In this document: positions 5,138-58,393 of the stretch, piece by piece
Layout: each line of letters begins with the position of its first letter
Position numbering within the stretch: the first letter of the stretch is position 1
Assembly: GCA_944383925.1 (NCBI GenBank)
Contig: CALWRM010000028.1
Location: 1-60,303 of the forward strand
From: an uncultured Clostridia bacterium
GTDB taxonomy: Bacteria; Bacillota; Clostridia; Christensenellales; UBA1750
Length of the DNA: 60,303 nt
Reading direction: 5' to 3'
The notes under the pieces: generated by a model
What the model saw: the letters and a program-made list of their open reading frames with translations, nothing else
Databases searched by the model: none
Told to the model about the DNA's origin: nothing
Position numbers and translations under genes: made by a program

Positions 5138-7462
5138 TCACATCTCCCCCAGGCCGTGCTTGACCCTATCCCGCTCCTCGGCGCGCTTGGCGTCGTTGAA
5201 GCTGGCCAGCGTGCCCACCAGGTAGCCGGTGACGCGGCGGATGCGCTCAAAGGGCGCGTCCGGGCTCTCCTCCCTGCCGCACTTGGGACAGGTATCGCCG
5301 ATGATGCCGTTGTAGCCGCAGACGGGGTCCCGGTCCACGGGGTGGTTGACGGAGCCGTAGCCCACGCCCGCGTCGTGCATGCAGCGGATCACCTGCTCAA
5401 AGGCCTCCAGGTTCTGCAGGGGATCGCCGTCCATCTCCACATAGGTGATGTGGCCCGCGTTGGTCAGCTCGTGGTAGGGAGCCTCCAGGCGGATCTTCTT
5501 AAAGGCGGAAATGGGGAAGTACACGGGGATGTGGAAGGAGTTGGTGTAATACTCCCTGTCCGTCACGCCGGGGATGATGCCGTAGCGGGCCTTGTCCTTG
5601 CGCACGAAGGTGCCGGAGAGGCCCTCCGCGGGCGTGGCCAGCAGGGTGTAGTTGAGCCCGGTCTTGGCGCTCTCCTCGTCCACGCGGGCGCGCATATGGC
5701 CGATGATGTCCAGGCCGAGGTTCTGGGCCCGCTCGCTTTGGCCGTGGTGCTCGCCGATGAGGGCCACCAGGCACTCCGCCAGGCCGATGAAGCCGATGGA
5801 GAAGGTGCCGTGCTTGAGCACCTCGCGGATGGGCTCGTTGGGGCCGAGCTTGTCGGAATCGATCCACACGCCCTCGCCCATCAGGAAGGGGAAGTTGGCC
5901 TTGGTCTTGCCGGCGATCATCTCAAAGCGCTCGTTCAGCTGGTCGATCACCAGGTCGATGCGCCGGTCCAGCTCCTCGAAGAACAGAGAGATGTCGCCCT
6001 TGGCGCGGATGGCCAGGCGGGGCAGGTTGATGGAGGTGAAGCTCAGGTTGCCGCGGCCGGGGCTGATCTGGCGGTCCTTGTCGAAGTTGTTGCCGATGAC
6101 GCGGGTGCGGCAGCCCATGTAGGCGATTTCCGTCTCCGGATGGCCGGGCTTATAGTATTGCAGGTTGAAGGGGGCGTCCTGGAAGGAAAAGTTGGGGAAC
6201 AGGCGCTTGGCGCTGACCTTGCAGGCCAGCTTAAACAGGTCGTAGTTGGGCTCGCCCTCCTCGTAGTTGATGCCTTCCTTCACGCGGAAGATCTGGATGG
6301 GAAAGATGGGGGTCTCCCCGCCGCCCAGACCGTCCCAGGTGGCCAGCAGCACGTTGCGCATGACCATGCGGCCCTCGGGCGAGGTATCCATGCCGTAGTT
6401 GATGGAGGAAAAGGGGATCTGCGCGCCCGCGCGGGAGTGCATGGTGTTCAGGTTGTGGATGAGGGCCTCCATGGCCTGGAAGGTAGCCCGGTCGGTCTCC
6501 TTGGCGGCGTGCCCGCGGGCGAAGTCCTGGCAGCGCTCCACGTCCTGGGTGGCCGCAAACTCCTGCAGCAGGGCGGCCTCGGCCTTGCGGTAGGCCTCGT
6601 CGTGTTCCAAGCTGGGCTTGAGGCCCTTCTCGCCCAGGGCGGCGACGGTCTCGTCCACGCGCTGCTCCCAGTCCACCTGGCCGCCCACCAGCAGCTCCAG
6701 GGCCCGGGCCAGGTTCTGGCGGTAGCGCCGCACATAGGTCTTGGCCACGCCCGGGGCAAGGCCGTAATCGAAGTTGACGATGGACTGGCCGCCATGCTGG
6801 TCGTTTTGGTTGGATTGGATGGCGATGCAGGCCAGGGCCGAGTAGGAAGCGATGTCCTGGGGCTCGCGCAGCACGCCATGGCCCGTGCCAAAGCCGCCCT
6901 TGAACAGCTTGAGCAGGTCGATCTGGCAGCAGGTGGTGGTCAGGGTGAGGAAGTCCAGGTCGTGGATGTGGATATCTCCCTCCCGATGGGCCTTGGCGTG
7001 TTCGGGCTTGAGCACGAACATGTCGTTGAACTGCTTGACGCCCTCGGAGCCGTACTTGAGCATCATGCCCATGGCGCTGTCGCCGTTGATGTTGGCGTTT
7101 TCGCGCTTGAGGTCGCTGTCGGCGGCCTTGGAAAAGGTGATGTCCTCGTAGATCTTCATCAGGCGGGTCTGCATATCGCGGGAACGGGTGCGCTCGGCAC
7201 GATACAAAATGTACGCTTTTGCGGTGCGCACATAGCCGTTCTCAATGAGGGCGCTCTCCACCAAATCCTGGATCTGCTCCACGGAAGGGGTGGAACCCAG
7301 GGTCTGGTCGGCCTTGGCGGCCACCTCCCTGGCCAGCGTCTGGCAAACGTCCATGCCCTTGGACTGATGGGTGGCGGTGAAGGCCTTCTGTATGGCCTGG
7401 GCAATCTTGTCCTCGTCAAACGGCACGAGCCTGCCGTCCCTCTTCACAATCGTGCTCAGCAT
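5138..7462 (-). CDS. nrdD: Class III anaerobic ribonucleoside-triphosphate reductase
   Basis: ATP-cone 'IVKRDGRLVPFD', 'YMGCRT', 'ATPAEGLSG', glycyl-radical 'RRVTGYL'; alternative GTG start at 7471. Confidence 0.97.
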   Translation of the reverse strand: MLSTIVKRDGRLVPFDEDKIAQAIQKAFTATHQSKGMDVCQTLAREVAAKADQTLGSTPSVEQIQDLVESALIENGYVRTAKAYILYRAERTRSRDMQTRLMKIYEDITFSKAADSDLKRENANINGDSAMGMMLKYGSEGVKQFNDMFVLKPEHAKAHREGDIHIHDLDFLTLTTTCCQIDLLKLFKGGFGTGHGVLREPQDIASYSALACIAIQSNQNDQHGGQSIVNFDYGLAPGVAKTYVRRYRQNLARALELLVGGQVDWEQRVDETVAALGEKGLKPSLEHDEAYRKAEAALLQEFAATQDVERCQDFARGHAAKETDRATFQAMEALIHNLNTMHSRAGAQIPFSSINYGMDTSPEGRMVMRNVLLATWDGLGGGETPIFPIQIFRVKEGINYEEGEPNYDLFKLACKVSAKRLFPNFSFQDAPFNLQYYKPGHPETEIAYMGCRTRVIGNNFDKDRQISPGRGNLSFTSINLPRLAIRAKGDISLFFEELDRRIDLVIDQLNERFEMIAGKTKANFPFLMGEGVWIDSDKLGPNEPIREVLKHGTFSIGFIGLAECLVALIGEHHGQSERAQNLGLDIIGHMRARVDEESAKTGLNYTLLATPAEGLSGTFVRKDKARYGIIPGVTDREYYTNSFHIPVYFPISAFKKIRLEAPYHELTNAGHITYVEMDGDPLQNLEAFEQVIRCMHDAGVGYGSVNHPVDRDPVCGYNGIIGDTCPKCGREESPDAPFERIRRVTGYLVGTLASFNDAKRAEERDRVKHGLGEM

Positions 7463-16020: not shown

Positions 16021-18699
16021 TTACCTCTCGATCTCTTCCTGGACAAAGCACTCGATGACATCGTTTTCCTTGATGTCGTTGTAGTTTTCCAGGCCAATGC
16101 CGCATTCAAAGCCGCTGGCCACTTCCCTGGCGTCGTCCTTAAAGCGCTTCAGGGAGGAGAGCTTGCCCTCGTAAATGACGATGTTGTCGCGCAGCAGGCG
16201 CACCTGGGCGTTTCTGCGCACGATGCCGTCGGTGATGTAGGAACCGGCCACGGTGCCCGCGCCGGTAACGCGGAAGACCTGGCGCACCTGGGCGTGGCCC
16301 AGGATGACCTCCTTGAACTTGGGGGCCAGCATGCCCTTCATGGCGGCCTTGATCTCGTCGATGGCGTCGTAGATGACGCGGTAGAGGCGCACGTCGATCT
16401 TCTCGCGCTCGGCGCTCTCCTTGGCCTAGGCATCGGGGCGGACGTTGAAGCCGATGACGATGGCGTTGGAGGCCGAGGCCAGCATGATGTCGGTCTCGTT
16501 GATGGCGCCGACGCCGCCGTGGATCACGCGCACGCGCACCTCTTCGTTGGAAATCTTCTCCAGGGCCTGGCGCACGGCCTCCACGGACCCCTGCACGTCG
16601 GCCTTGACGATGATGTTCAGGTCCTTGATCTCGCCCTCCGCCATCTGCTGGAACAGATCGTCCAGCGTGGCCTTGGACATGGCCTTGAGCTGCTCGGCCT
16701 TCTGCTTGTCGCGGCGCTCCTCGGCCACCTGGCGGGACAGCCGGTCGTCGTCGGAGACGTTGAGCACGTCGCCCGCCTCGGGCACGTCGGAGAAGCCGAT
16801 GATCTCCACGGGGATGGAGGGACCCGCGTCCTTGACGGACTGGCCCTTGTCGTTGACCATGGCGCGCACGCGGCCATAGGCCGTGCCGGCCACGATGGTA
16901 TCGCCCACGTGGATGGTGCCGGATTGCACCAGCACCGTGGCCACGGGGCCGCGGCCCTTGTCCAGCCTGGCCTCGACGATGGTGCCCCTGGCGGCGCGGT
17001 TGGGGTTGGCCTTCAGCTCCTTCATCTCGGCCGTGAGCAGGATCATCTCCAGCAGGTTTTCGATGCCCTCGCCGGTGAGCGCGGAAACGGGCACCACGAT
17101 GGTGTCGCCGCCCCAGTCCTCGGCCACGAGCTCGTACTCGGTGAGCTCCTGCTTGACCCTTTCGGGGTTGGCGGTGGGCTTATCCATCTTGTTGATGGCC
17201 ACGATCAGGGGCACGCCCGCCGCCTTGGCATGGTTGATGGCTTCCACGGTCTGGGGCATGATGCCGTCGTCCGCGGCGACCACCAGCACCACGATATCCG
17301 TCACCTGGGCGCCCCTGGCGCGCATGGCCGTGAAGGCCTCGTGGCCGGGGGTATCCAGGAAGGTGATGAGCTGGTCGTGAATGGTGACGGTGTAGGCGCC
17401 GATGTGCTGGGTGATGCCGCCCGCCTCGCCGGCGGTGACGTTGGTCGCGCGGATCTTATCCAGCAGGGAGGTCTTGCCATGGTCCACGTGGCCCATGATG
17501 GTGACCACGGGCGGACGGGGCAGCAGCTCCTCCTCCTTGTCCTCCTTGTCCTGGACCTCCATGAGGGTTTCCTCGAAGGTCTTTTCCAGCTTCAACTCGA
17601 ACTCGATGCCAAACTCGCTGCAAACGAGGGAGGCGGTGTCAAAGTCCAGCTCCTGGTTGATGGTGGCCATGATGCCCACCAGCAGCAACTTCTTGATGAT
17701 TTCCGCCGCGGGCTTGCCGATGCGCTCGGACAGGTCCTTGACGGTGATGGTTTCGGCGGTCATATAGGCCTTTTCGATCTTGACAGGCTCGATATGAACC
17801 TGCTTTTGATCCTTGCGGGGCCTCTTCTTGCTGCCCCTCCAGTCGTCGTCCAGACCGCCCTTGGCCGCGAAGCTCTCCTTGAGGATGGCCTTCTTCTGCT
17901 TGGGCACCTTCTTTTCCGGATCGTGCTGGCGCTGGTAATTCTGCTTGTTGGGGTCGTAGTTGGAGACCCGCTCCTTTTCGATGGTGGGGGTCAGCTCGGG
18001 GCCCTTGGACTTGCCAAAGCCGCCGCGGGAACCGCCAAAGCCGCCGCGCGGGCCGCCGGAACGGGGCGCGTCGTCCCGATCCTTGCCGGCAAAGGGCCGA
18101 TCCTGCCTTTGGAAGGGCCTATTCTGGCCGGGCGCGCCGCCCTGCTGGGGCCTGGGGCCGCGGGCCGGGCCGGCCGCGCCGCCCTGCTGGTTTTGCCGGT
18201 TGACCAGGGCGTTGGGATCGTTGGGGTTCGGCACGAAGGGCCTGGGCGCGAAGGGCCGCTGGCCCTGGGGACGGGCGCCTTGGGGCCGGGCGCCCTGGGA
18301 GGGACGGTTCTCCGTCCTGGGCGTTTGCGGCCGGGGCGCCGGCTGCGCGGCCGGAGCGGTTTGCGCGGGACGATTTGCCTGCGCCGCCTGTGCGCGCTCG
18401 GCCTCCGCCTGGCGCTGCCTCTGGGCCTCCGCCGCCTGGTTGCGCTGCTCCCGCTCCCTCTGCAGGGCTTGCTTGATGGCCTCCTGCTGGGCGCTGAGGG
18501 AGGCCAGCCTCTCCTCCTCCTCGCGGGCGCGGCTCTCCTCCTGCTGCCGGGCCTCCTGCTGGCGCAGGTTTTCCTCCATCTGGCGCAGGCTCTTGATGAG
18601 CTCCTGGGTGGTCTTGCGGGTTTCGGTCATGCTCTCCATGAGCGAGGCCGCCCCGCTGCCCAGCAGCTTTGCCGCTTCAGTAATCACAATTCTCGTCAT
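16021..18699 (-). CDS. infB: Translation initiation factor IF-2, interrupted by one in-frame TAG at 16426-16428
   Basis: '[10 protein letters not shown]', '[10 protein letters not shown]', 'DTPGHEAF'; the frame continues past the TAG as [19 protein letters not shown] to the C2 domain 'SLKRFKDD...GFECGI'. Confidence 0.93.
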
Positions 18700-35420: not shown

Positions 35421-35466
35421 CCAAAGGCCCGTCCCCCTGACCGACACGAAAGAAGAGGAATTGCCC

Positions 35467-36717
35467 ATGCGAAAAGCCATATCTTTGCTGCTCTGCCTTG
35501 TCCTTATCGGCCTTACGGCCGGTTGCATGGCCCAGGACGCGCCCGCGAGCGCCTCGGCCAGCGCGGAACCTTCCGCCTCCGCCGAGCCCACCCCCACCGC
35601 AACCCCCAGCACCCAGGACGCCAGCCTGGACCTGATCTCCGACGTGCTGTTGCAGAGCGAGGCCTTCTCCATCCGCCTGCTGCAAAACGGCGTGGCCGCC
35701 GACACCTCCGGTAACACCGTCTTCTCGCCTCTGGGCGTTAGCGCCGCCTTGGCCGCCCTGTACCTGGGCAGCGCCGGGGAGACGGCCGAGGAGCTCCGCG
35801 CCCTGGCCGGCTTCACCGCCGAGGCCGAGGACGTGCTCTCGGCCTTGGCCAGCTTCTCCTCCGACGCCACCGGTACGCAGCTGGTGATCTCCGACCGCTA
35901 CAGCCTCTCGGACAGCTATGTGCAGGCGCTCTCCGCCGCGGGGATGCGGTGCGTCTCGGCTTCCCTGGGGTCCGCCGATGGCACCGGCCAGCTCAACGCC
36001 GCCGCAGCCCTCTACTCCCACGCCTTCGCCGACGCCTTTGAGACCACGACGCCCTCGGAATCCCTGCTCGTGCTCACGGGCTCCGCGCCAAGCCTGGCCT
36101 TTGACACTCCCTTCCCCGTGCTGGAACGCTTCCAGGGGCTGTTCGAGTCCCCGGACGGGCTTGTTCCCTGCGACTTTCTGTACAGCGAGGGCGACCTGCC
36201 CTATTATGAGGACGAACGGGTGCAGATCTGCGCCGTTCCCATGGACGGCGGCCAGACCGAGCTGCTGCTCATCCTGCCCAAGGGCGACTCCATGAGCGAC
36301 ACCCTGGAGCTGCTGGGCCAATACGGCGGCGATTGGATCGGCGCCGACGACCTGCAGGCCTATCCCGTGCGGCTGACCTTGCCCGCCCTGTCCCTCACCC
36401 AGAACGCCTCCCTGCTGGAAAACCTCCTGTCCATGGGGCTCAGCCTCCCCTTCAACCAGACCGCCGCGGACTTTTCGCCCATGTTGGCGGAGAGCTTTCC
36501 CCTTTCCCTCAGCGGCTTTTACACCCTGACGGAGCTGAACATCAGCGAAACCGGCATCAACCACGACGGCCAAGCGCCCCAGGAGGCCAACTTCAACTCC
36601 AGCGAGGCGGGCGCGGACATGCTCCTGGACCGCCCCTTCCTGTTGGCCTTGCGCAGCAAGAGCAGCGGCGCGCCACTTCTGCTCGCCTGGATCAACACGC
36701 CCAATAGCGCCCTTTAG
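35467..36717 (+). CDS. Serpin-family lipoprotein (divergent)
   Basis: Signal peptide with lipobox LTAGC; serpin motifs 'NTVFSPLGVSAAL..LYLGSAGETAEEL' and 'LDRPFLLAL...PLLLAWINTP'. Confidence 0.72.
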   Translation: MRKAISLLLCLVLIGLTAGCMAQDAPASASASAEPSASAEPTPTATPSTQDASLDLISDVLLQSEAFSIRLLQNGVAADTSGNTVFSPLGVSAALAALYLGSAGETAEELRALAGFTAEAEDVLSALASFSSDATGTQLVISDRYSLSDSYVQALSAAGMRCVSASLGSADGTGQLNAAAALYSHAFADAFETTTPSESLLVLTGSAPSLAFDTPFPVLERFQGLFESPDGLVPCDFLYSEGDLPYYEDERVQICAVPMDGGQTELLLILPKGDSMSDTLELLGQYGGDWIGADDLQAYPVRLTLPALSLTQNASLLENLLSMGLSLPFNQTAADFSPMLAESFPLSLSGFYTLTELNISETGINHDGQAPQEANFNSSEAGADMLLDRPFLLALRSKSSGAPLLLAWINTPNSAL

Positions 36718-45321: not shown

Positions 45322-46077
45322 CTAGGCCATTTCCTGTAGGAAGGGCAGGGCCTGCTCGAACAGGTAGCTATGGCCCCTGCCCGCGTCGTTGAGGAAGTCG
45401 CCATGGCCGGGGCCATGGACCACCTGCAGGCGCAGGGGCGCGGCATATTCGAAATGCTCCAAGGTCTTGACAAAGAGCTGGTTCTGCTCGAGGCGGCAGG
45501 GCATGTCATCGTCGGAAACGATGAAGAGCTGGGGCGCGCCCTGGCTTCTTGCAAAATACAGGGGCGCTCTATGGTCGATTCTGGCCGTTCGTGGGTCTAA
45601 ACCGGAATACTTTAACACATTAAAGTGCGTGGTAGGCTGTCCGGACAGCTGCACGAAGCCGCCGAAGGCATCCGGATCCAGCCCATGGGCGCCCAGATAC
45701 TGCTTATCGAAGGCAAGCATCATGGAAAGGTAGCAGCCCGCCGAATAGCCGCCCACGAACAGCTTGCCGCGGCGCAGGTAGGCGTCGGCGTGCTCGTTGA
45801 CCCAGGCAACGGAGCGAGCCGCATCCAGCAGGAAATCCGGGTAGACGGCCTCGGGGAAGAGGCGGTAGTCCGGCGCCGCCACGGCGACGCCCGCCTGGGC
45901 AAACTCGCGGCCCATGCCCTCCAGGTCCTCCTTCACGCCCTGCTCCAGCCCGCCGCCGTAGAAGAACACCAGCAGGGGGAAGGGACCCTCTCCCTGGGGC
46001 AGGTAAAGGTCCAGGGCGTTGCGCTCCAGCCGCTCCGGCGCGTAACACAGGTCTTTGACGATCTTCACCTCGTACAT
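45322..46077 (-). CDS. Alpha/beta hydrolase (carboxylesterase-like)
   Basis: 'LDLYLP', 'FYGGGL', 'DYRL.P', nucleophile elbow 'GYSAG'. Confidence 0.85.
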   Translation of the reverse strand: MYEVKIVKDLCYAPERLERNALDLYLPQGEGPFPLLVFFYGGGLEQGVKEDLEGMGREFAQAGVAVAAPDYRLFPEAVYPDFLLDAARSVAWVNEHADAYLRRGKLFVGGYSAGCYLSMMLAFDKQYLGAHGLDPDAFGGFVQLSGQPTTHFNVLKYSGLDPRTARIDHRAPLYFARSQGAPQLFIVSDDDMPCRLEQNQLFVKTLEHFEYAAPLRLQVVHGPGHGDFLNDAGRGHSYLFEQALPFLQEMA

Positions 46078-46386
46078 GATGATCACCCTTTCCGTCCATA
46101 TTCAGTCCATCTTCAGCCCTCCGGCTGTTTCTCCCGCTTCGATCCGATCCAAGGAAGGCCCCAAAGCGGCGAAGGGACCGGCCTTCGTCTTCCCCGTCCG
46201 GTGGCCGTCGCCCTGACCGGGTCCAGCGTTGGAAAGGACGTTGGCCTGCCGCAGCGGGCCCACGCGGCCCGCGCCTTCGCGCCGCTTTCACGTAATAAAG
46301 TTATTGATTTTTATCCCATTTTTATTGGGTATTTCCCAGACAATTGGCCGTTTTCCATGATTTATTCCCGAAAATCCCTCCGCCTT

Positions 46387-48072
46387 CTAGAGATAGCGTC
46401 CGGCGGTCACGTCCAGCAGGCCCCGGTCCGTCAAGCGCGCCTCCGGCAGCACGGGCAGGGGCAGGAAGGCCAGCGTCACGAAGGGCTCGACGCCCTCGGG
46501 CACGCCCATTTGGTGGGCCTTGCGGATCAGGGCGTCCAGGGTCTGGTCCACGGCGCTGGCCCCTTGCAGGGAAAGCAGGCCCATGGCGGGCAGGGGCAGG
46601 CAGCCGGCCACATAGCCGTCCTCCACCAGCACATAGCCGCCCTGACAGCGGACCAGCTCCTCCACGGCCAGGCGCATATCCCGATCGTTGTCGCCCAGCA
46701 CGATGAGGTTGTGGGAGTCGTGGCCCATGGTGGCGGCGATGGCGCCGCCCCGTATGCCAAAGCCCTTCACGGCGGCCAAGCCGATGTTGCCGCTGGCCTT
46801 GTGCCGCTCCAGCACGGCGGCCTTGCTGTAGGTTCCGTCCGGCTGAAAGCGGCCGCGCAGGCCGGGCAGGCGCTCCTGGCGCAGCTTGGTCAGGATCTGG
46901 CCCGGCACCACCTCGATCACCGCCGCCGGCCCGTCCGCCATGGCGAAGGGGTCCGGGCCCAGCTCCGCCAGGCGAACCGTATGCAACAGCTCGTCGGGGC
47001 AGGCGGGCTTTTCGGGCAGGGGCCAGCTCTCCACGGGGCGGCCGCGATACAGCGCGCGCTCCACCACAAAGCCGTCGCGATCGTCCACCACCAGCAGGTT
47101 GGCGGCCTTGCCGGGGGTGATGGCTCCCAGATGCCGGAGTCCGTAGTGCTGGGCGGCGTTGCGGCTGGCCATCTGTACGGCCTGGATCAGGGGCAGGCCC
47201 AGGGCCAGGGAGGCGCGCACGTTGTGGTCGATATGGCCCTCCCGTCGAATGTCGCGGATGTGCTTGTCGTCCGTGCAGAAGCAGAAGGCGGAGCTGTCCA
47301 CCCCGCTGGCCACCAGGCCGGACACGATGCTCTCCAGGTTGCGGGCCGCGGATCCCTGCCGGACCAGGATGCGCAGTCCGGCGCGGGCCTCCTGCAGGGC
47401 CGCATCGAAATCCACGCATTCGTGGTCGCTGGAGATGCCCGCAAGGGCGTAGGCGTTGAGCGCGCCGCCCCGCAAGAAGCCGCCGTGGCCGTCGATGGGG
47501 CGGTTCTCAAAGAGGCGAAGCTTGTCCAGCATGTCCTCCCTGGCCTCCAGCACGGCGGGCAGGTCCATCACCTCGCCAAGGCCCAGCACCCTTGGGTCCC
47601 CCAGAAAGGGCGCCATATCCGCCGCGCGGAAGGCGCCGCCGTTGTTCTCCTCCGGCAGGGCGGGCACGCAGGAGGGCATCTGGACATACACGTCCGCCGG
47701 AACCCCCTTCAGGCATTCCATCAGGTAGGCGATGCCGGCGCCGCCGGCGACGTTGGCCACCTCGTGGGGATCGACGATGAAGGCCAGGGTGCCGTGGCGG
47801 GCCGCCTCCAGCACCAGCTCCGCCGGGTTGGCCAGGCAGGACTCCAGGTGCAGGTGCGCGTCCACAAAGCCGGGGCAGAGCAGGCGCCCGCCCAGGTCGA
47901 TCTCCTCCCTTCCGGCGTACTCGCCCACGCCGACCACCAGTCCCCCCTCCACGGCTACGTCGCCAGGATAGATCTCCCCCGTGTTGGTGTCCAGCACGCG
48001 GCCGTTTTTCAGCACCAACTCGGCCCTTTCCAGGCCCTGGGCGATGCGAGAAAGCCTTGCGTCAAAATGCAT
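46387..48072 (-). CDS. ade: Adenine deaminase
   Basis: 'PGFVDAHLHLES', 'DPHEVANV', 'GLGEVM', 'DHEC', 'CTDD', 'HDSHN'. Confidence 0.93.
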   Translation of the reverse strand: MHFDARLSRIAQGLERAELVLKNGRVLDTNTGEIYPGDVAVEGGLVVGVGEYAGREEIDLGGRLLCPGFVDAHLHLESCLANPAELVLEAARHGTLAFIVDPHEVANVAGGAGIAYLMECLKGVPADVYVQMPSCVPALPEENNGGAFRAADMAPFLGDPRVLGLGEVMDLPAVLEAREDMLDKLRLFENRPIDGHGGFLRGGALNAYALAGISSDHECVDFDAALQEARAGLRILVRQGSAARNLESIVSGLVASGVDSSAFCFCTDDKHIRDIRREGHIDHNVRASLALGLPLIQAVQMASRNAAQHYGLRHLGAITPGKAANLLVVDDRDGFVVERALYRGRPVESWPLPEKPACPDELLHTVRLAELGPDPFAMADGPAAVIEVVPGQILTKLRQERLPGLRGRFQPDGTYSKAAVLERHKASGNIGLAAVKGFGIRGGAIAATMGHDSHNLIVLGDNDRDMRLAVEELVRCQGGYVLVEDGYVAGCLPLPAMGLLSLQGASAVDQTLDALIRKAHQMGVPEGVEPFVTLAFLPLPVLPEARLTDRGLLDVTAGRYL

Positions 48073-48234
48073 GCGTTCCTCTCCTCCCTCCTCACTTGGA
48101 CCAGATCTTCTCGCCCCCGAGTATACCACAACCGCGGCCAAAAAAGAAGGCGGCATCCCCTTCCCAAAGGCGGCCGCTTCCTGTATGATGGTCTTGGATA
48201 CCCCAACACAAAAACCCATGAAGGGGGACTTGGT

Positions 48235-49299
48235 ATGTCCATCACGGGACTTGATACCCTATGCAGGCTCTCCAACGCAAAGACCCGCTCCATCTCCGCC
48301 GAAAACTTCACCGGCGAAAAGGGAAAGGGCGGCATGGCCACCCAGGGCTGCGGCGCCAACGCCGCCAGGGACCTGGGGCAGGGCTGGAAGGTTTCGCCCT
48401 GCATCGTGCTGGAAAGCGGAAAGACCTATGAGCTGGCCTCCATCGCGGGGCCCGGCGCCATCCAGCACATCTGGACCACGCTCTCGGGCAGTTGGCGCCA
48501 CGTGATCCTGCGCATCTACTGGGAAAACAGCCAACAACCCAGCGTCGAATGCCCCTTGGGCGACTTTTTTGCCAGCGCGGACATGGATAGCTACCGGCCC
48601 TTGTCCTCCCTGGCCGTGTGCGTGAACCCCGCCAGGGGCGGCAACTGCTACTGGCGCATGCCCTTCCAAACCCACTGCCGCATCACGGTGGAAAACATCG
48701 CCCCGGAAAACGCCACCCTCTTCTACCAGATCGATTACGAGCTGGACGAGCAGCCGGAAAACATCGCCTATTTCCACGCCCAATTCCGCCGCGTCAACCC
48801 CCTGCCCTACAAGGGCGTCTACACCATCGTGGACGGCATTAGGGGCAAGGGCCAATACGTGGGCACCTACCTGTTTTGGGGGGTGAACAACAACGGTTGG
48901 TGGGGCGAGGGCGAGATCAAGTTCTATTTGGACGGCGACAAGGAATTCCCCACCATCTGCGGCACCGGCACGGAGGACTACTTCTGCGGGGCCTACAACT
49001 TCGACGTCGGCGGCCAGTACACCGAGTTCTGCACCCCCTACGCGGGCCTTTCCAAGGTCCTGCGGCCGGACGGCGCCTATCGGGCCAACCAGCGCTTCTC
49101 CCTGTATCGCTGGCACATCGCCGATCCCATCCGCTTTGAGACCGACCTGGCCGTCACCATCCAGGCGCTCGGCTGGCGCAGCGGCGGCCGTTACCTGCCC
49201 TTGCAGGACGACATCTCCTCCGTCGCCTACTGGTACCAAACCCTGCCAACCTCTCCCTTCCCGGCCCTGCCCGATTACGACGGGCTGGAAATCATCTGA
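48235..49299 (+). CDS. DUF2961 / glycoside hydrolase family 172 protein
   Basis: 'RSISAENFTGEKG.GG', 'GPGAIQHIW', 'WWGEGEIKF', 'GTGTEDYF', 'DDISSVAYWYQ'. Confidence 0.88.
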   Translation: MSITGLDTLCRLSNAKTRSISAENFTGEKGKGGMATQGCGANAARDLGQGWKVSPCIVLESGKTYELASIAGPGAIQHIWTTLSGSWRHVILRIYWENSQQPSVECPLGDFFASADMDSYRPLSSLAVCVNPARGGNCYWRMPFQTHCRITVENIAPENATLFYQIDYELDEQPENIAYFHAQFRRVNPLPYKGVYTIVDGIRGKGQYVGTYLFWGVNNNGWWGEGEIKFYLDGDKEFPTICGTGTEDYFCGAYNFDVGGQYTEFCTPYAGLSKVLRPDGAYRANQRFSLYRWHIADPIRFETDLAVTIQALGWRSGGRYLPLQDDISSVAYWYQTLPTSPFPALPDYDGLEII

Positions 49300-53147: not shown

Positions 53148-54065
53148 CTACTCCTCCCCCTTGAGCCGGCGGAACTCCTCCTCGTCCTCCGGGGCGATCA
53201 CGCCGCCCAGGTCGAAGTCGGGCACGAAGCTCTCGCTGGCGCTCTCCTCCTCCTGCACGAAGCCGTCCAGCTCCGTGGCGAAGAGGTGCTCCTCCACGGC
53301 CTTGTACTCCTCCTCGGTCACCCGGCGGTTGATCTCCGGATAGTTGTAGGCCTGGCCGCAGGGGATGTACTGGCGCATCAGGGAGAAATAGACCTTGCCC
53401 GAATACCGCTCGGCCACGTAGTCGATGACGGCCTTGGCGTTGTCCACCTGGCCGGGCAGGATCAGGTGGCGGATGATCACGCCCTTTTTCAGCAGGCCGT
53501 TTTCGTCCAGCTGCACGGGTCCCACCTGCTCGTACATCCGCTCGATGGCGGTCTTGGCTGCCTGGAAATAGTCCTCCACGCCGGAATAGCGCCGGCCGGG
53601 CAGGCGATAGGCGTATTTGAGGTCCGGCAAATAGATATCCACAAGGCCGCGCATCAGCTCCAGCGCCTGCTCGCCGTCGTAGCCATGGGTGTTGTACACC
53701 ACGGGAATGGGCGGCCGCTTTTGCAGGGCCTTGGCGATGGCCGGCGCGAAGTGGGTGGGGTTGACCAGGTTGATGTTGTGGGCGCCCTTTTCATACAGCT
53801 CAAAGAAGATCTCCCGCAGGCGGCTCACGCTCACGGGCAGGCCCTTGCGCATGTGGCTGATCTCCCAGTTTTGGCAATAGGCGCAGCGCAGGCTGCAGCC
53901 GGAAAAGAACACGGCCCCGGAGCCCCTTTCTCCGGAGATGCAGGGCTCCTCCCAGTGGTGCAGCATGGCCTTGGCGACGTAGGCATCCTCGCCCATGCCG
54001 CAAAAGCCGATTTCCCCATTGGCGCGGTCCACGCCGCAAGCCCTTTGGCATAGCGTGCATATCAT
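53148..54065 (-). CDS. Radical SAM protein, PflX-like
   Basis: 'HHWEEPCISG..GSG.VFFSGCSLRCAYCQN', 'NINLV.PTH', 'DIYLPDLKY', 'IRHLILPG'. Confidence 0.88.
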   Translation of the reverse strand: MICTLCQRACGVDRANGEIGFCGMGEDAYVAKAMLHHWEEPCISGERGSGAVFFSGCSLRCAYCQNWEISHMRKGLPVSVSRLREIFFELYEKGAHNINLVNPTHFAPAIAKALQKRPPIPVVYNTHGYDGEQALELMRGLVDIYLPDLKYAYRLPGRRYSGVEDYFQAAKTAIERMYEQVGPVQLDENGLLKKGVIIRHLILPGQVDNAKAVIDYVAERYSGKVYFSLMRQYIPCGQAYNYPEINRRVTEEEYKAVEEHLFATELDGFVQEEESASESFVPDFDLGGVIAPEDEEEFRRLKGEE

Positions 54066-54211
54066 CTTGTTTTCTCCCCCTTACGAGCGTTTCTTCTGTC
54101 TATTAAGGGCAGTATACCACACTTGCCGCCCGCAAAGACAGCTTTTTTCGAGCCCTTGCGGCTTTCCCGCCCCTTGTTCGCAGATTTCCGGGAAAACGCG
54201 CCCGCGGCCTT

Positions 54212-54221
54212 GTGCTATGGT
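54212..54221 (+). promoter_or_regulatory. Possible extended -10 promoter for the terminase operon
   Basis: TGTGcTATGGT about 35 nt upstream of ATG 54257; no clear -35. Confidence 0.35.
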
Positions 54222-54256: not shown

Positions 54257-54454
54257 ATGTTGAAACAGGAGATTCAGATCGCGCGGGAGCTGCTGAGCGC
54301 CATGCGGGAGCAAAACCTGGACGAGAAGCTGCAAATCACGGCCCTGGATCTGATCCGCAAGCTGGTCCTGGCCCAGGCGACCTTGGACAAGGCAGGGGAC
54401 ATGCCGGAGCTGGTGCTGCCCGAAGGTTTGGAGGAGGAGGCCGACGGCCGATGA
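54257..54454 (+). CDS. 65-aa protein coupled to the terminase; candidate reduced terminase small subunit
   Basis: Perfect AAGGAGG RBS; the stop overlaps the terminase ATG (ATGA); 'EKLQITALDLIRKL' and an acidic tail 'ELVLPEGLEEE'. Confidence 0.6.
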   Translation: MLKQEIQIARELLSAMREQNLDEKLQITALDLIRKLVLAQATLDKAGDMPELVLPEGLEEEADGR

Positions 54455-55818
54455 AGCTTCTCCTTCCCTACACGCCCACGGAAAAGCAGCTGCTCTTTCA
54501 CAACGCCCGGGAGGACGAGGTGCTCTATGGCGGCGCGGCCGGTGGGGGCAAGTCCACGGCCGTGGTGATGGACGCCTTCCTGCGCTGCTACCGCCACCCG
54601 GGCAGCTATGCCTATCTGTTTCGCCGCACCTACCGGGAGCTGGAGGACACGCTCATCGCCGAGGCCCTGCGCCGCATCCCTTCGGCCCTTGGCAGCTACC
54701 AGGCCTCCGCCCACGAGCTGCGGCTGCGCAACGGCTCCGCCCTGCGCTTCCGCCACTGCCAGCGGGAGCAGGACCGCTTTCAATACCAGGGCGCGGAGAT
54801 CCATTGGCTGTACCTGGATGAGCTCACCCACTTTTCCAAGGACGTTTACGACTTTCTAAAATCCCGGCTGCGCGCCAGCAAGGCCCTGGGCATCCGCCCG
54901 CTGGTCCGGGCCACCAGCAACCCGGGCGGCCCCGGCCACGCCTGGGTCAAGGCGCGGTTTGTGGACCCCGTGGCCCCGGGCCAAACCCAGCGCATCGAGG
55001 TCTGCGAGGGGGGACTGCGGGGGGAGCGCAGCCTGCGCTACATTCCCGCCCGCGTGCAGGACAACCCCCACATCGGCCAGGACTACCTGCTGGAGCTGGC
55101 GCAAAAGCCCCGCGCCCTGCGGGAGGCCCTGCTCTATGGCCGCTGGGACGCCTTCGAAGGCCAGGTCTTCACCGCCTGGCGGGACGATCCCGCGGGCTAC
55201 CGCAGCCAGCGCTTTACCCACGTGGTGGAGCCCTTCGAGATCCCGGAAAGCTGGCGCCGCTTCCGCTCCTTCGACTTCGGCTATGCCCGGCCCTTTTCCG
55301 TGGGCTGGTGGGCCTTGAGCCCGGACGGCGTCCTCTACCGCTACCGGGAGTGGTACGGCTGCACCGGCGTGCCCAACGAGGGGCTGCGCCTGACCCCGGA
55401 CCGCATCGCCCGGGGCATCCGGGAGGCGGAGGCCCAGCACGAAAAGGGCCTGCGGGTGACGGGCTATGCGGACCCCTCTATTTGGGACGGCTCCAGGGGC
55501 GAGAGCATCGCCCTGCAGATGCAGCGGGAGGGCGTGAGCTTTCAGCCCGCGGAAAACGCCCGGCTCCCCGGGCTGATGCAGGTGCACAGCCGGCTGCGCT
55601 TCGATGAAAATGGCCGCTGCGGGCTGTATGTGTTCCATTGTTGCCGGGACTCCATCCGCACCATCCCCGCCCTTTGCTACGACCCGGAGCGGGTGGAGGA
55701 CGTGGACACCTCCAGCGAGGACCACATCTACGACGAGTGGCGCTACCTGCTCATGGCCCATCCCCTGCCCCTGACCAAGCCGCGGCCGCGAAGGCGGGGC
55801 TTTTCGCCGCTGGATTGA
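54451..55818 (+). CDS. terL: Phage terminase large subunit (Terminase_6-like), orphan
   Basis: Q motif 'PTEKQ', Walker A 'GGAAGGGKS', Walker B 'LYLDELTHF', coupling motif 'ATSNPGGPGH.WV', nuclease acids 'SFDFGY', 'ADPS', 'EDHIYDEWRY'. Confidence 0.92.
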   Translation: MKLLLPYTPTEKQLLFHNAREDEVLYGGAAGGGKSTAVVMDAFLRCYRHPGSYAYLFRRTYRELEDTLIAEALRRIPSALGSYQASAHELRLRNGSALRFRHCQREQDRFQYQGAEIHWLYLDELTHFSKDVYDFLKSRLRASKALGIRPLVRATSNPGGPGHAWVKARFVDPVAPGQTQRIEVCEGGLRGERSLRYIPARVQDNPHIGQDYLLELAQKPRALREALLYGRWDAFEGQVFTAWRDDPAGYRSQRFTHVVEPFEIPESWRRFRSFDFGYARPFSVGWWALSPDGVLYRYREWYGCTGVPNEGLRLTPDRIARGIREAEAQHEKGLRVTGYADPSIWDGSRGESIALQMQREGVSFQPAENARLPGLMQVHSRLRFDENGRCGLYVFHCCRDSIRTIPALCYDPERVEDVDTSSEDHIYDEWRYLLMAHPLPLTKPRPRRRGFSPLD

Positions 55819-55918: not shown

Positions 55919-55981
55919 GGGCACACTGAACCGTGAACCTTGCATGCCAAGTGGGCGAGCATGCCGGAGGGAGGCCTTGTT

Positions 55982-57109
55982 TTGAAGCTGCGATATCAGA
56001 AAACCCTGGTGGACGGCCGTCTGCGCGAGAACATGAGCGTGGAGGTGGCGGACGGCCGCGTGCTGCGCGTGGTCGAGGAGGCAGGCCCCGCCGAGGAGTG
56101 CCTGCTGCTGCCCGGCCTGATCGACCTGCACATCCACGGCATGCTGGGCGTGGACACGATGCAGGGCTGCCAGGCCGTGCAGGCCATGGCCGCCGCCCTG
56201 CCCCGCTACGGGGTCACCGCCTTCCTGCCGACCACCATGAACGACGAGGCGGGACGGATCCGCCAGGCCCTGTCCGGCGTCGCCCGCGCGATGGACCTGC
56301 CCTCCGGCGGCGCGCAGATCCTGGGCGCCCATCTGGAGGGGCCCTTTTTCGCCAAAGACCACCTGGGCGCCCAGGACGCGGGCTGCTGCCTGGCCCCCAG
56401 CATGGACAACTACCTGCGCATCGCCGAGGGGCTGGAGGGCGCGGTCAAGCTGCTCTCCCTAAGCCCGGAGCTGCCGGGTGCCGAGGCGCTGACCGCCTAC
56501 CTCGTTTCCAAGGGCGTGGCCGTCAGCGCGGGCCATACGGGCGCCACGCTGGAGCAGATGGAACGCGCCCAGGCATCCGGCCTGCGCCAGGTGACCCACC
56601 TGTTCAACGGCATGAACGGGCTGCACCACCGGGCGCCCGGCGTGCCCGGCGCGGGCCTGACGCTGGACGGCCTGACCTGCCAGCTGATCGCCGACGGCAT
56701 CCACCTGCATCCCGCCATCCTCAAGCTCTGCCTGCGGGCCAAGGGCGCCGCCGGCCTGTGCCTGATCACGGACGCCATGGCCGCCTGCGGCATGCCCGAC
56801 GGCCAGTACCGCCTGGGGCCCACGGACGTGACCGTGCGGGACGGCGTGGCCCGCATCGCCGCCGGCAACCTGGCTGGCTCCACCCTGACGCTGGACCGGG
56901 CCTTGCGCAACATGGTGCAGCTGGCCGGCGCCAGCTTGGAGGAGGCCGCGCGGATGGCCTCCCAAACCCCGGCCGACGCACTGGGGCTGGAGGAGCTTGG
57001 CCGCATCGCCCCCGGCGCGGTGGCCAGCTTCGCCGTGTTTGACGGGGCGTTGCGCGTACAAAAAACCTACGTGGCGGGCTGCCTGCGCTACGACGGAGCG
57101 CGCGCATGA
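55982..57109 (+). CDS. nagA: N-acetylglucosamine-6-phosphate deacetylase
   Basis: 'PGLIDLHIHG', 'HLEGPF', 'AGHT', 'THLFNGM', 'ADGIH', 'ITDAM', 'LAGSTL'; TTG start after GGAGGGAGG. Confidence 0.93.
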   Translation: MKLRYQKTLVDGRLRENMSVEVADGRVLRVVEEAGPAEECLLLPGLIDLHIHGMLGVDTMQGCQAVQAMAAALPRYGVTAFLPTTMNDEAGRIRQALSGVARAMDLPSGGAQILGAHLEGPFFAKDHLGAQDAGCCLAPSMDNYLRIAEGLEGAVKLLSLSPELPGAEALTAYLVSKGVAVSAGHTGATLEQMERAQASGLRQVTHLFNGMNGLHHRAPGVPGAGLTLDGLTCQLIADGIHLHPAILKLCLRAKGAAGLCLITDAMAACGMPDGQYRLGPTDVTVRDGVARIAAGNLAGSTLTLDRALRNMVQLAGASLEEAARMASQTPADALGLEELGRIAPGAVASFAVFDGALRVQKTYVAGCLRYDGARA

Positions 57110-57735
57110 TTGCCTGGGCGCAGCGCTTCTTGGAGGGCATTCACGCCCTGCCCGTGTGGAACGTCGCCCTGTTTTTCGCCGTTTGCGGCATGTTGCAGGC
57201 CTTTTTTCCCGTCTTTCCCGGGGACATCGTGCTCATCATCGGCGCGGGCGTCTGGACCGGCGGTTTGGCCAACGACCTTTGGCCCGTGCTGTTCAGCTAC
57301 TGGATCGGCACCACCGCCGCCTCCCTGGCGCTGACCGAGATCGGCCGCAGCTTCGGCGATTACCTGCTCACGCGCAGGTGGTTGCGGCGCGTCTTTCCCC
57401 CGCGGCGCCAGGCCTTGGCAGGCAGCTGGCTGCGCCGCCGGGGCGTGCTGACCATCTTCGCCGCCAAGTTCATAATGGGCATGAATCTGCCCATCCTCAT
57501 GGTCTGCGGCATCCTGCGCATGCCGCGCAGGCGGGTATATCCGGCGGTCATCCTGACCACGGCGATCCACAACACCTTGCTCTATTCCCTCGGCTCCGCG
57601 GTGGGGCTCAACTGGCAAACCGTCAAGGACTTCCTGCTGGAATACGAGCTGGTCGTCGCCCTGGCCCTGGCGGTCATCATCGGGCTGGCCGTCTGGATCC
57701 GCTCCAAGCTCTCCGGCGGCGGGAAAAATCCCTGA
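57106..57735 (+). CDS. DedA/SNARE-associated family membrane protein
   Basis: 'FPVFPGD.VL..AG', 'IFAAKFI.G'; overlaps the nagA stop (ATGA). Confidence 0.8.
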   Translation: MIAWAQRFLEGIHALPVWNVALFFAVCGMLQAFFPVFPGDIVLIIGAGVWTGGLANDLWPVLFSYWIGTTAASLALTEIGRSFGDYLLTRRWLRRVFPPRRQALAGSWLRRRGVLTIFAAKFIMGMNLPILMVCGILRMPRRRVYPAVILTTAIHNTLLYSLGSAVGLNWQTVKDFLLEYELVVALALAVIIGLAVWIRSKLSGGGKNP

Positions 57736-57775
57736 CCGGCGGCCCGCGCGCAGCCCTTGCTCCCCCTTACATCTC

Positions 57776-57819
57776 AAAGCGGGGACGGCGTCTTTCCGCC
57801 GTCCCCGCTTCTTCCTTTT
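57776..57819 (+). terminator. dedA terminator, copy 1
   Basis: AAGCGGGGACGGCG-tctttc-CGCCGTCCCCGCTT plus a T-rich tail. Confidence 0.75.
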
Positions 57820-58393
57820 CAACCATTTCCCCCCCCCGGAGGTTGACCTGATCGCCGCCCTAGCCCTGGCGCTCTTCATCGGGCTGGCCGTCCGCATCCG
57901 CTCCAAGCTCTCTGGCGGCTGGAAAAAAGACCGGCGGCCTGCGCGCATTCCTTATTCCCCACAGGACTTCCTGCTGGAATACGCGCTGGTCGTCGTCCCG
58001 GCGCAAGCGCTCATCATCGGGCTGGCCGTCCGAATCCGCTCCAAGCTCTCCGGCGGCGGAAAAAAAGACCGGCGGCCCGCACGCAGCCCTTATTCCCCAC
58101 AGGACATCCTGCTGGAATACGCGCTGGTCGCCGCCCCGGCGCAGGCGCTCATCATCGGGCTGGCCGTCCGAATCCGCTCCAAGCTCTCCGGCGGTGGGAA
58201 AAATCCCTGACCGGCGGCCTGCTCGCAGCCCTTGCCCCCTTTAGGACTTCCTGCTGGAATATGCGCTGGTCGCCGCCCTAGCCCTGGCGGTCTTCTTCGG
58301 GCTGGCCGTCCAGATCCGCTCCAAGCTCTCCGGTGGCGGCGGGAAAAATCCCTGACCGGCGCCCGCGCGCGGCACTGGTTTCCCTTGCATGTC

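Follow-up and report, generated by a model that had tools for sequence, protein, structure and literature searches.

The window analysed here is a stretch of 60,303 nucleotides (contig CALWRM010000028.1) from an uncultured Clostridia bacterium of the order Christensenellales. Among its housekeeping genes lies a two-gene unit, a small open reading frame (ORF) followed by terL, the gene for the large subunit of a phage-type terminase. This unit is probably the packaging module of a gene transfer agent (GTA) of the type described as FpGTA in Faecalibacterium prausnitzii, which is vertically inherited and split over at least three loci in one family of Christensenellales. The terminase locus of the window (locus 1) is accompanied in the same genome by a head operon on contig C147 (locus 2) and a fibre-like operon on contig C4 (locus 3). 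The reading is carried by gene content, intact motifs, co-occurrence of the loci, a shared sequence box, vertical descent and purifying selection, all of which were observed.

The window's genome (G000) is a metagenome-assembled genome (MAG) of 2.38 Mb in 158 contigs, with a completeness of 97% and a contamination of 0.56%. It was compared with its 40 nearest species genomes (numbered from G001), and each of the 41 genomes in this set is a MAG. The window's family is represented by 20 species genomes, with genera labelled g1, g5 and g6. Most of the sequencing runs in which the stretch occurs carry a label of chicken or other animal gut (20 rows, 15 studies).

The product of terL was identified using Pfam and PHROG profiles. 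Matches were obtained to Terminase_3 (2e-08) and Terminase_6N (1.3e-07) in Pfam, and to the 'terminase large subunit' families PHROG 979 (1.9e-42) and PHROG 2 (2.2e-40). PHROG 2 covers residues 2-441 of TerL and PHROG 5653 covers residues 256-436. The functional residues were followed in an alignment of 19 rows, comprising 13 orthologues and 6 more distant relatives. The ATPase motifs (Walker A, G27-K34; Walker B, D123-E124; coupling motif, S156-N157) are invariant in all 19 rows. The same holds for the acidic residues D275, D341, D417/D419 and D424/D428 of the nuclease, which we take to be those of the catalytic site. The TerL family is very large, with 7352 proteins at E ≤ 1e-40 among the 7998 scored. 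The terL start codon lies within an ATGA stop/start overlap with the small ORF, by which the two genes are translationally coupled, and AAAGGAGG is found 7 nucleotides (nt) upstream of the small ORF. The G+C content at third codon positions (GC3) of terL is 0.89, compared with a window mean of 0.866 (standard deviation 0.05; 41 genes of at least 150 residues), and is thus host-like. No terminator was detected 3' of terL in a consensus scan. Near-identical contigs over terL appear in two RNA libraries (X17 and X18), which is a weak hint of expression of the locus, DNA carry-over being possible in such libraries.

The other ORFs of the window are housekeeping genes, including a nusA-infB-rbfA-truB-ribF-rpsO-pnp operon, nrdDG and transporters. 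Pfam scanning of 46 of them gave no phage, integrase or lysis family. There is no tRNA gene in the window, and no direct repeat was found on the flanks of the small ORF-terL unit. The terL locus showed neither an integrase gene nor att repeats, no genes for replication or lysogeny and no remains of pseudogenes, and is thus not a prophage locus by gene content. The original prediction, made from the letters of the window, had described an intact TerL of 455 residues in a two-gene unit, with host-like codon style and with neither phage genes nor att-like repeats around it, and this description was borne out in each of these respects. TerL is the sole protein of its kind found in the genome. No other TerL_ATPase, Phage_portal or HK97 Phage_capsid family was detected in scans of this genome, in which, at 97% completeness, absence is unproven.

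The remaining head genes were located by searching the whole assembly with the portal and capsid proteins of relatives (tblastn), which gave one place only, on contig C147. The operon found there encodes the portal, a scaffold-like protein, a major capsid protein of the N4-gp56 type, an adaptor and further proteins, listed in the table below. A terminator hairpin lies directly 5' of the portal gene. The genes beyond it are those of the host (transglutaminase-like, PrsA-like, two VanW, Rex and others); a gene for a terminase was not found among them. The contig terminates 430 bp past the last gene of the operon. The ~680-residue tail protein that is encoded in contiguous modules of other genomes gave no tblastn match in the window's genome. 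Portal orthologues with identities of 56-81% are present in 11 of the 12 relatives that have a lone terL, the twelfth being G013 (88% complete). TerL and portal lie on separate contigs in all 12 genomes that have both; in G007 these contigs are 99 kb and 253 kb long. G001, G007, G014 and G006 have the genes of the head operon in the same order, and the PrsA and transglutaminase genes flank the operon in both g1 and g6.

The third locus, on contig C4, was reached through a sequence box that is described in the next paragraph. The box is followed on its 3' side by a gene for a protein of 395 residues and then by one for a protein of 249 residues. Homologues of the 395-residue protein are present in 8 of the 12 relatives with a lone terL and in none of the 28 other genomes. 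Conservation outside g6 is limited to the N-terminal 200-300 residues, with a variable C-terminus, a pattern that is the one expected of a receptor-binding protein. The AlphaFold model of this protein has a mean predicted local distance difference test score (pLDDT) of 63, with ~75-83 for the N-terminal domain. In it, an N-terminal beta-sandwich is followed by a long helix and then by a beta domain at the C-terminus. The top Foldseek matches of the model are BppU/ORF48 of TP901-1 and the baseplate of 80alpha (E 6e-07 to 4e-05), and Pfam BppU_N is weakly matched by 4 of the 9 members. The sole match of the protein itself in the PHROG and Pfam libraries is a 'minor tail protein' at 2e-04. The 249-residue protein gave no PHROG or Pfam match and no homologue in the loci fetched from relatives; a role as a chaperone, or as a distal part of the fibre that is specific to the strain, is possible.

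A box consisting of TTTCCnGGAAAA, 15 nt and GTGCTAT is common to the regions 5' of the small ORF and of the portal gene. It is composed of a palindrome at about -35 and an extended -10-like element, TGnTAnnnT, and would act as a promoter/operator. The terL and portal sites were used to build the regular expression TT[TC]C[CT].[GA]G[AG]AAA.{12,18}TG.TA...T. Exactly three matches to it occur in the entire genome of the window, one at each of the three loci. Twenty simulated genomes (first-order Markov) gave a mean of 0.05 matches, with 19 zeros and one count of 1. The same box is found 5' of all three loci in G001, G002 and the g6 genome G007. It also stands at the terL and fibre loci of a second g6 genome, G013, in which the portal was not found.

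Another box, again common to the loci, is used in genus g5. It has the form CGCTGTNCG-N12-STANNNT. Identification of this box as a LexA box was considered and dropped, the spacing of its half-sites being unlike the LexA consensus. The three genome-wide matches in G018 are the three loci, and the two in G012 are terL and the fibre gene; in G017, terL and the portal account for two of the three matches, and the remaining one lies elsewhere. A control search with the pattern reversed gave no match. The g5 pattern was drawn from the sites themselves, and the informative part of these counts is the near-absence of other matches. Separately, a LexA/CI-like repressor gene (helix-turn-helix (HTH) plus S24 peptidase; PHROG 4, 1e-40) was noted in the g5 genome G014, at 16128-16784 in the coordinates of locus L063 (G014:C39) and ~1.3 kb 5' of the portal operon. 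Its product is a possible regulator of the g5-type box.

The descent of terL was followed within the family. High-identity TerL is present in one copy per genome in g1 (83-84%, 2 of 2 genomes), g5 (67-76%, 8 of 8) and g6 (72-73%, 2 of 2). Among the 20 species genomes, 13 have a TerL of the lone type, two (G003 and G009) have a copy of 62-65% identity, and five have none at E ≤ 1e-60. A quick IQ-TREE phylogeny of 70 TerLs, which is unrooted, was computed after removal of L107 (too short) and L119 (identical to L118). All 13 lone TerLs fall into a single clade, which has a Shimodaira-Hasegawa-like approximate likelihood ratio support of 100 and within which g5 and g6 are each a supported sub-clade. 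The rows closest to this clade are G003 and G009, of the same family. TerL identities to G000 (84, 83, 72-73, 67-76, 65 and 62%) track those of NusA (92, 85, 78-79, 70-73, 71 and 68%), the outlier G014 included. The divergent radical-SAM (rSAM) gene adjoins terL in 8 of 10 assessable loci of relatives, these eight being in g1 or g5; two further loci are on contigs too short to judge, and the two g6 loci have another context, common to both. The gene on the other side, nagA, is found 3' of terL in g1 only.

Selection on terL was estimated from ratios of nonsynonymous to synonymous substitution rates (dN/dS; Nei-Gojobori). Values of 0.087, 0.076 and 0.081 were obtained for the three closest pairs, at dS of 0.38-0.60. 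For comparison, the values are 0.04-0.10 for the flanking rSAM gene, 0.18 for the PAP2 gene, 0.16-0.20 for the portal and 0.13-0.17 for the major capsid protein. Between G001 and G000, TerL is 84% identical, compared with 80% for rSAM, 71% for NagA and 67% for PAP2, and TerL is thus conserved at least as well as its neighbours. The lone terL is vertically inherited under purifying selection, as expected of a GTA. The original prediction had offered two readings of the unit, either one locus of a dispersed GTA-like system or a co-opted translocase/nuclease, and had named synteny, a TerL tree, dN/dS and orphan head loci as the means of deciding. All four came out in favour of the first, which is largely supported: the rSAM side of the synteny is kept, the lone TerLs mirror the genera, terL is under constraint, and head and fibre-like operons stand elsewhere in the genome under the same box. 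The stand-alone translocase or nuclease is not favoured because terL co-occurs with head genes.

An ORF of 64-86 residues that is preceded by GGAGG, ends at the terL start and is translationally coupled to terL is present at all 13 lone terL loci, and all of these ORFs can be aligned. Their products have a helical region followed by a short hydrophobic strand and an acidic tail. The 65-residue protein of the window gave no Pfam, PHROG or NCBIfam match. The small terminase subunits (TerS) of contiguous modules in relatives have 179-250 residues and match PHROG 2606, 51 and 309. Their C-termini carry a strand-Pro-acidic motif similar to that of the small-ORF protein. A predicted complex of TerL with the small-ORF protein scored 0.40, compared with 0.00 for the best of three controls, which is a weak signal. 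At least 79% of contacts agree between runs, and the pLDDT of the partner is 72. When this method was calibrated, 58 of the 80 solved complexes and 2 of the 110 mismatched pairs attained the mark, and scores of 0.60 or below were those of just 7 of the 80 solved complexes and of both passing mismatched pairs. The small-ORF protein may be a TerS cut down to its oligomerisation and TerL-binding parts, by analogy with gp1 of RcGTA, the GTA of Rhodobacter capsulatus. The TerS of RcGTA has no DNA-binding domain at its N-terminus and uses its C-terminus to bind the TerL ATPase, according to the available text of its description (PMC6854486).

Contiguous forms of the element are found in relatives whose TerL has 43-65% identity to that of the window. 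In these genomes terL is followed by the portal gene (PHROG 156), and in most of them a scaffold-like gene (PHROG 13908) and a major head protein gene (PHROG 1357) come after the portal and TerS is encoded 5' of terL. The TerLs with identities of 54-65% (G003, G009 and G025) sit in modules of ~11-12 kb amid host genes. The order in the contiguous modules is TerS, TerL, portal, scaffold, capsid, adaptor, and proteins of ~460, ~680 and 200-300 residues. The module of G025 has in addition an HTH repressor and a phrog_36 regulator on its 5' side as well as a 'tail protein', and its last gene is endolysin-like. Of 26 flank proteins scanned around the contiguous modules, none matched a PHROG for integrase or replication. 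Identification of the 54-65% relatives as full prophages was rejected on the basis of this result and of their host-gene flanks. A single split from a contiguous ancestor is suggested because G003 and G009 are contiguous and their TerLs branch beside the split clade and follow NusA divergence; the tree from which this would follow is unrooted.

Three further layouts were observed. At locus L036 (G036:C17, 628-4617), from another family, the portal (-) and terL (+) genes are divergent, with a phrog_36 sigma/ArpU-like regulator and a TerS-like ORF between them, which may be an intermediate or an alternative arrangement of the same element. At L079 and L093-L095 the TerLs are 58-61% identical and have no portal gene within 4 kb downstream. 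They belong to MAGs of Christensenellales and of 'Bacillota bacterium' that come from other habitats, and the separation of terL from the portal may accordingly have happened more than once. Extra TerL-portal pairs with 43-45% TerL identity occur besides the split system at G007:C16:26699-29711 and G016:C12:3041-5851. They are probably true prophages or second modules.

The closest known system is FpGTA (Nat Commun 2026;17:2046), which is compared here from the available part of its report. FpGTA I is a 10.5-kb operon of ten ORFs that encodes a TerS without a DNA-binding domain, TerL, a portal, a scaffold and an 'N4-gp56 family' capsid; the particles measure ~40 nm and carry 8.4-8.9 kb of host DNA, and a second operon, 125 kb away, holds fibre, receptor-binding protein (RBP) and lysis genes (PMC12946183). 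On that account both hosts are gut Clostridia and the same podovirus-like gene set recurs (short TerS, TerL, portal, scaffold, N4-gp56 capsid and conserved hypothetical proteins). Neither system has replication or integration genes, both occupy more than one locus, and tail-fibre/RBP genes stand apart from head genes in both. FpGTA I is matched in layout by the contiguous ~11-kb modules of G003, G009 and G025. In contrast, the terS-like gene and terL are separated here from the portal and capsid genes, the loci number three instead of two, no holin/endolysin operon was found, and the host belongs to another order, Christensenellales. Particles and packaged DNA were observed for FpGTA, whereas the present system is known from its genes.

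RcGTA and the other alphaproteobacterial GTAs are also vertically inherited, phage-derived, host-controlled and multi-locus systems, with lysis and fibre genes at separate loci. RcGTA is siphovirus-like with an HK97-type capsid, and terS and terL head its main structural cluster. The system described here has instead an N4-gp56 capsid, a P22/SU10 portal and terminase genes that form a locus of their own, in an unrelated lineage. A third comparison is provided by the headful terminases of Clostridia temperate podo-like phages and modules (PHROG 979 / PHROG 2), which have the same fold family and motifs and 54-65% identity. The present TerL differs from these in having no adjacent portal gene and in having host flanks that are kept across genera, and its partner has 65 residues in place of a TerS of 180-250 residues that matches TerS PHROGs. 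To our knowledge, GTAs outside the Alphaproteobacteria are barely known, FpGTA of 2026 being the first to be described in gut Clostridia.

The gene set suggests the following sequence of events. One host regulator would act on the shared palindromic box and fire the three promoters in a subpopulation of cells. Locus 1 would then supply the minimal TerS-like protein and TerL, locus 2 the parts of the procapsid, and locus 3 the BppU_N-anchored tail-fibre/receptor-binding-like protein with its 249-residue partner. Procapsids would assemble, and TerS, having no sequence-specific DNA-binding domain, would recruit TerL. TerL would cut host DNA without sequence preference and fill small podovirus-like heads by headful packaging. 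The particles would be released by lysis and may deliver their DNA to kin. Particle formation, random packaging and transfer are in this way the presumed outcomes of genes that total ~10.2 kb of coding length over the three loci. Phage-derived structural and packaging genes are present between host flanks, and no replication, integration or lysogeny modules accompany them, as in a GTA.

The same gene evidence would be expected of a domesticated particle that packages DNA without gene transfer, as PBSX does. Such a particle could be linked to killing or lysis, or could release DNA that serves in biofilms or as a nutrient; terL would then be kept because packaging is required for heads to mature. 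We consider this unlikely. The question is also left open for FpGTA, in the available text of whose report PBSX is cited as a GTA-like element with the action of a tailocin (PMC12946183). A receptor-binding-like fibre with a variable C-terminus would suit killing as well as delivery. Nevertheless, the predicted particle, with its podovirus-like head, adaptor and short tail, lacks the contractile sheath needed for tailocin-type killing, and the head operon showed no gene for a sheath or a tube. Conservation of the nuclease and ATPase of TerL indicates packaging only and is silent on the fate of the DNA.

It is quite improbable that the loci are prophage remnants scattered by rearrangement, kept by chance or for single-gene roles such as a stand-alone nuclease/translocase or an anti-phage decoy. 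That terL stands alone amid housekeeping genes, that no lysis genes or regulator were found, and that two MAG copies of other components each contain one in-frame stop would agree with decay. However, the catalytic residues are invariant, the dN/dS of 0.08 is that of housekeeping neighbours, ten genes at three loci are kept across three genera, and in g5 the box common to the three loci has been altered in parallel at each of them. Remnants are disfavoured because neutral debris would keep none of these features. Least probable, in our estimate, is that the loci belong to a mobile satellite that depends on a helper, or to an active small temperate phage, the rest of which lies on unassembled contigs. 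The assembly is fragmented, phage regions often escape binning, and contig C147 ends soon after the last head gene, all of which would leave room for such an element. Against it, host genes flank the loci on long contigs (C44, 99 kb, and C16, 253 kb, of G007; C2, 101 kb, of G001), host flanks are syntenic across genera, the terL locus has no integrase gene, att site or tRNA gene, and the TerL tree mirrors the genera with no mixing with phages.

Several results weigh against a split GTA and are collected here. The system in these organisms is known from its genes, and the name GTA is conditional for that reason. Contigs C147 and C4 were assigned to the organism by binning (0.56% contamination) and by recurrence of the pattern in 12 other MAGs. 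The regular expression was derived from two of its three matches, so that only the match on C4 is independent. No regulator was identified, and a tblastn search of the window's genome gave no homologue of the phrog_36-type regulator that lies beside terL in G025 and G036. No holin or endolysin operon was found. The fibre homologue is missing in 4 of the 8 g5 genomes. One in-frame TAA is present in the fibre-like orthologue of G001 (G001:C28:8792-9685) and one in the portal orthologue of G002 (G002:C99:516-2060); each is the result either of decay or of assembly error. Comparison of the small-ORF profile with the TerS C-termini (hhalign) gave an E of 0.19 and a probability of 0.3%, with only the C-terminal strand aligned. 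The look-alikes of the small-ORF protein in the ESM Atlas score 0.86, below the 0.9 level, and are 'hypothetical protein' clusters, two of three being viral. Distant pairs of TerL have dN/dS values of 0.2-0.35, which are inflated because dS is saturated at a GC3 of ~0.9. The likeness to FpGTA, taken from the available part of its report, is one of gene set and layout.

A wider interpretation can be put forward tentatively, at slightly less than even confidence. The whole Christensenellales family would have a podovirus-derived GTA, which in three genera would be a regulon of three promoters (terminase, head and fibre) joined only by a palindromic operator that was replaced in step in one genus. 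This regulon would be the basis of the GTA-like packaging of DNA from Christensenellaceae in gut virus-like particles, and the first GTA in which the terminase is uncoupled from the portal. In the available text on FpGTA, GTA-like packaging in Christensenellaceae accounts for 3 of 25 events and its genes are unnamed (PMC12946183). The three loci and their operator-like box provide a concrete gene set with which this packaging can be tested. No description of the split system was found among the papers listed by the literature searches. The system has more precedent than the original prediction supposed; a podovirus-like GTA of gut Clostridia, FpGTA, had already been published in 2026. What is new here is the lineage, the separation of the terminase from the portal in the genome, and the putative three-locus regulon with a co-varying operator-like box, whereas GTAs as such and the FpGTA type were already known.

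Such systems will be missed by prophage finders, in which a lone terL amid housekeeping genes resembles debris. Other split GTAs could be mined by promoter motif instead of gene clustering, and the search for the regulator can start from the co-evolving operator-like box. The system belongs to a gut lineage that is heritable and associated with health, and to relatives of that lineage in animal guts. The features of the three loci and of the flanks of locus 1 are collected in the table.

Table. Features of the putative split GTA in the window's genome, with the flanking genes of the terminase locus
Feature	Location	Strand	Basis or remark
terL, large terminase (ATPase and RNase-H-like nuclease), 455 residues, intact	window 54451..55818	+	Pfam, PHROG, motifs
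65-residue ORF, candidate minimal small terminase (TerS-like), without DNA-binding domain	window 54257..54454	+	Shine-Dalgarno sequence, ATGA overlap
Putative promoter/operator box, TTTCCGGGAAAA-N15-GTGCTATGGT	window 54185..54221	+	genome-wide regular expression
Box match at head operon	C147:7131-7167	-	genome-wide regular expression
Box match at fibre-like operon	C4:21746-21782	+	genome-wide regular expression
Portal	C147 5576-7093	same strand as rest of operon	P22_portal, SU10_portal, PHROG 156
Scaffold-like protein, 147 residues	C147 head operon		
Major capsid protein (N4-gp56 type)	C147 head operon		TIGR04387, 227 bits vs cut-off 60; PHROG 1357 head protein
SU10-type adaptor	C147 head operon		Pfam SU10_adaptor
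Virion protein, 478 residues	C147 head operon		PHROG 3287 / PHROG 511
207-residue protein	C147 head operon		
294-residue protein	C147 head operon		distantly related to endolysin-like protein, last gene of G025 module (31% over 173 residues)
249-residue protein gene (L137, G000:C4)	6048-6797 in locus coordinates		
rSAM activase-like gene, divergent; flank, outside the system	window 53148..54065	-	adjacency to terL kept in g1 and g5
nagA; flank, outside the system	window 55940..57109	+	TIGR00221, 267.6 bits vs cut-off 225.65; 3' of terL in g1 only

Other features of the window were noted at a distance from the terminase unit. Positions 57626-58381 contain a tandem array of five ~139-nt units, whose identity to the first unit is 68-91%. 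The array begins within the 3' end of a VTT/DedA-like gene and spans the gap up to a P-type ATPase gene. A 68-nt segment that contains a hairpin is repeated at 57764 and 58382. Two genes stand out amid the housekeeping genes: a bacterial serpin gene at 35461-36714 (Pfam Serpin, 2e-32), and a gene at 45625-49299 for a protein of 1224 residues with a C-terminal DUF2961 domain.

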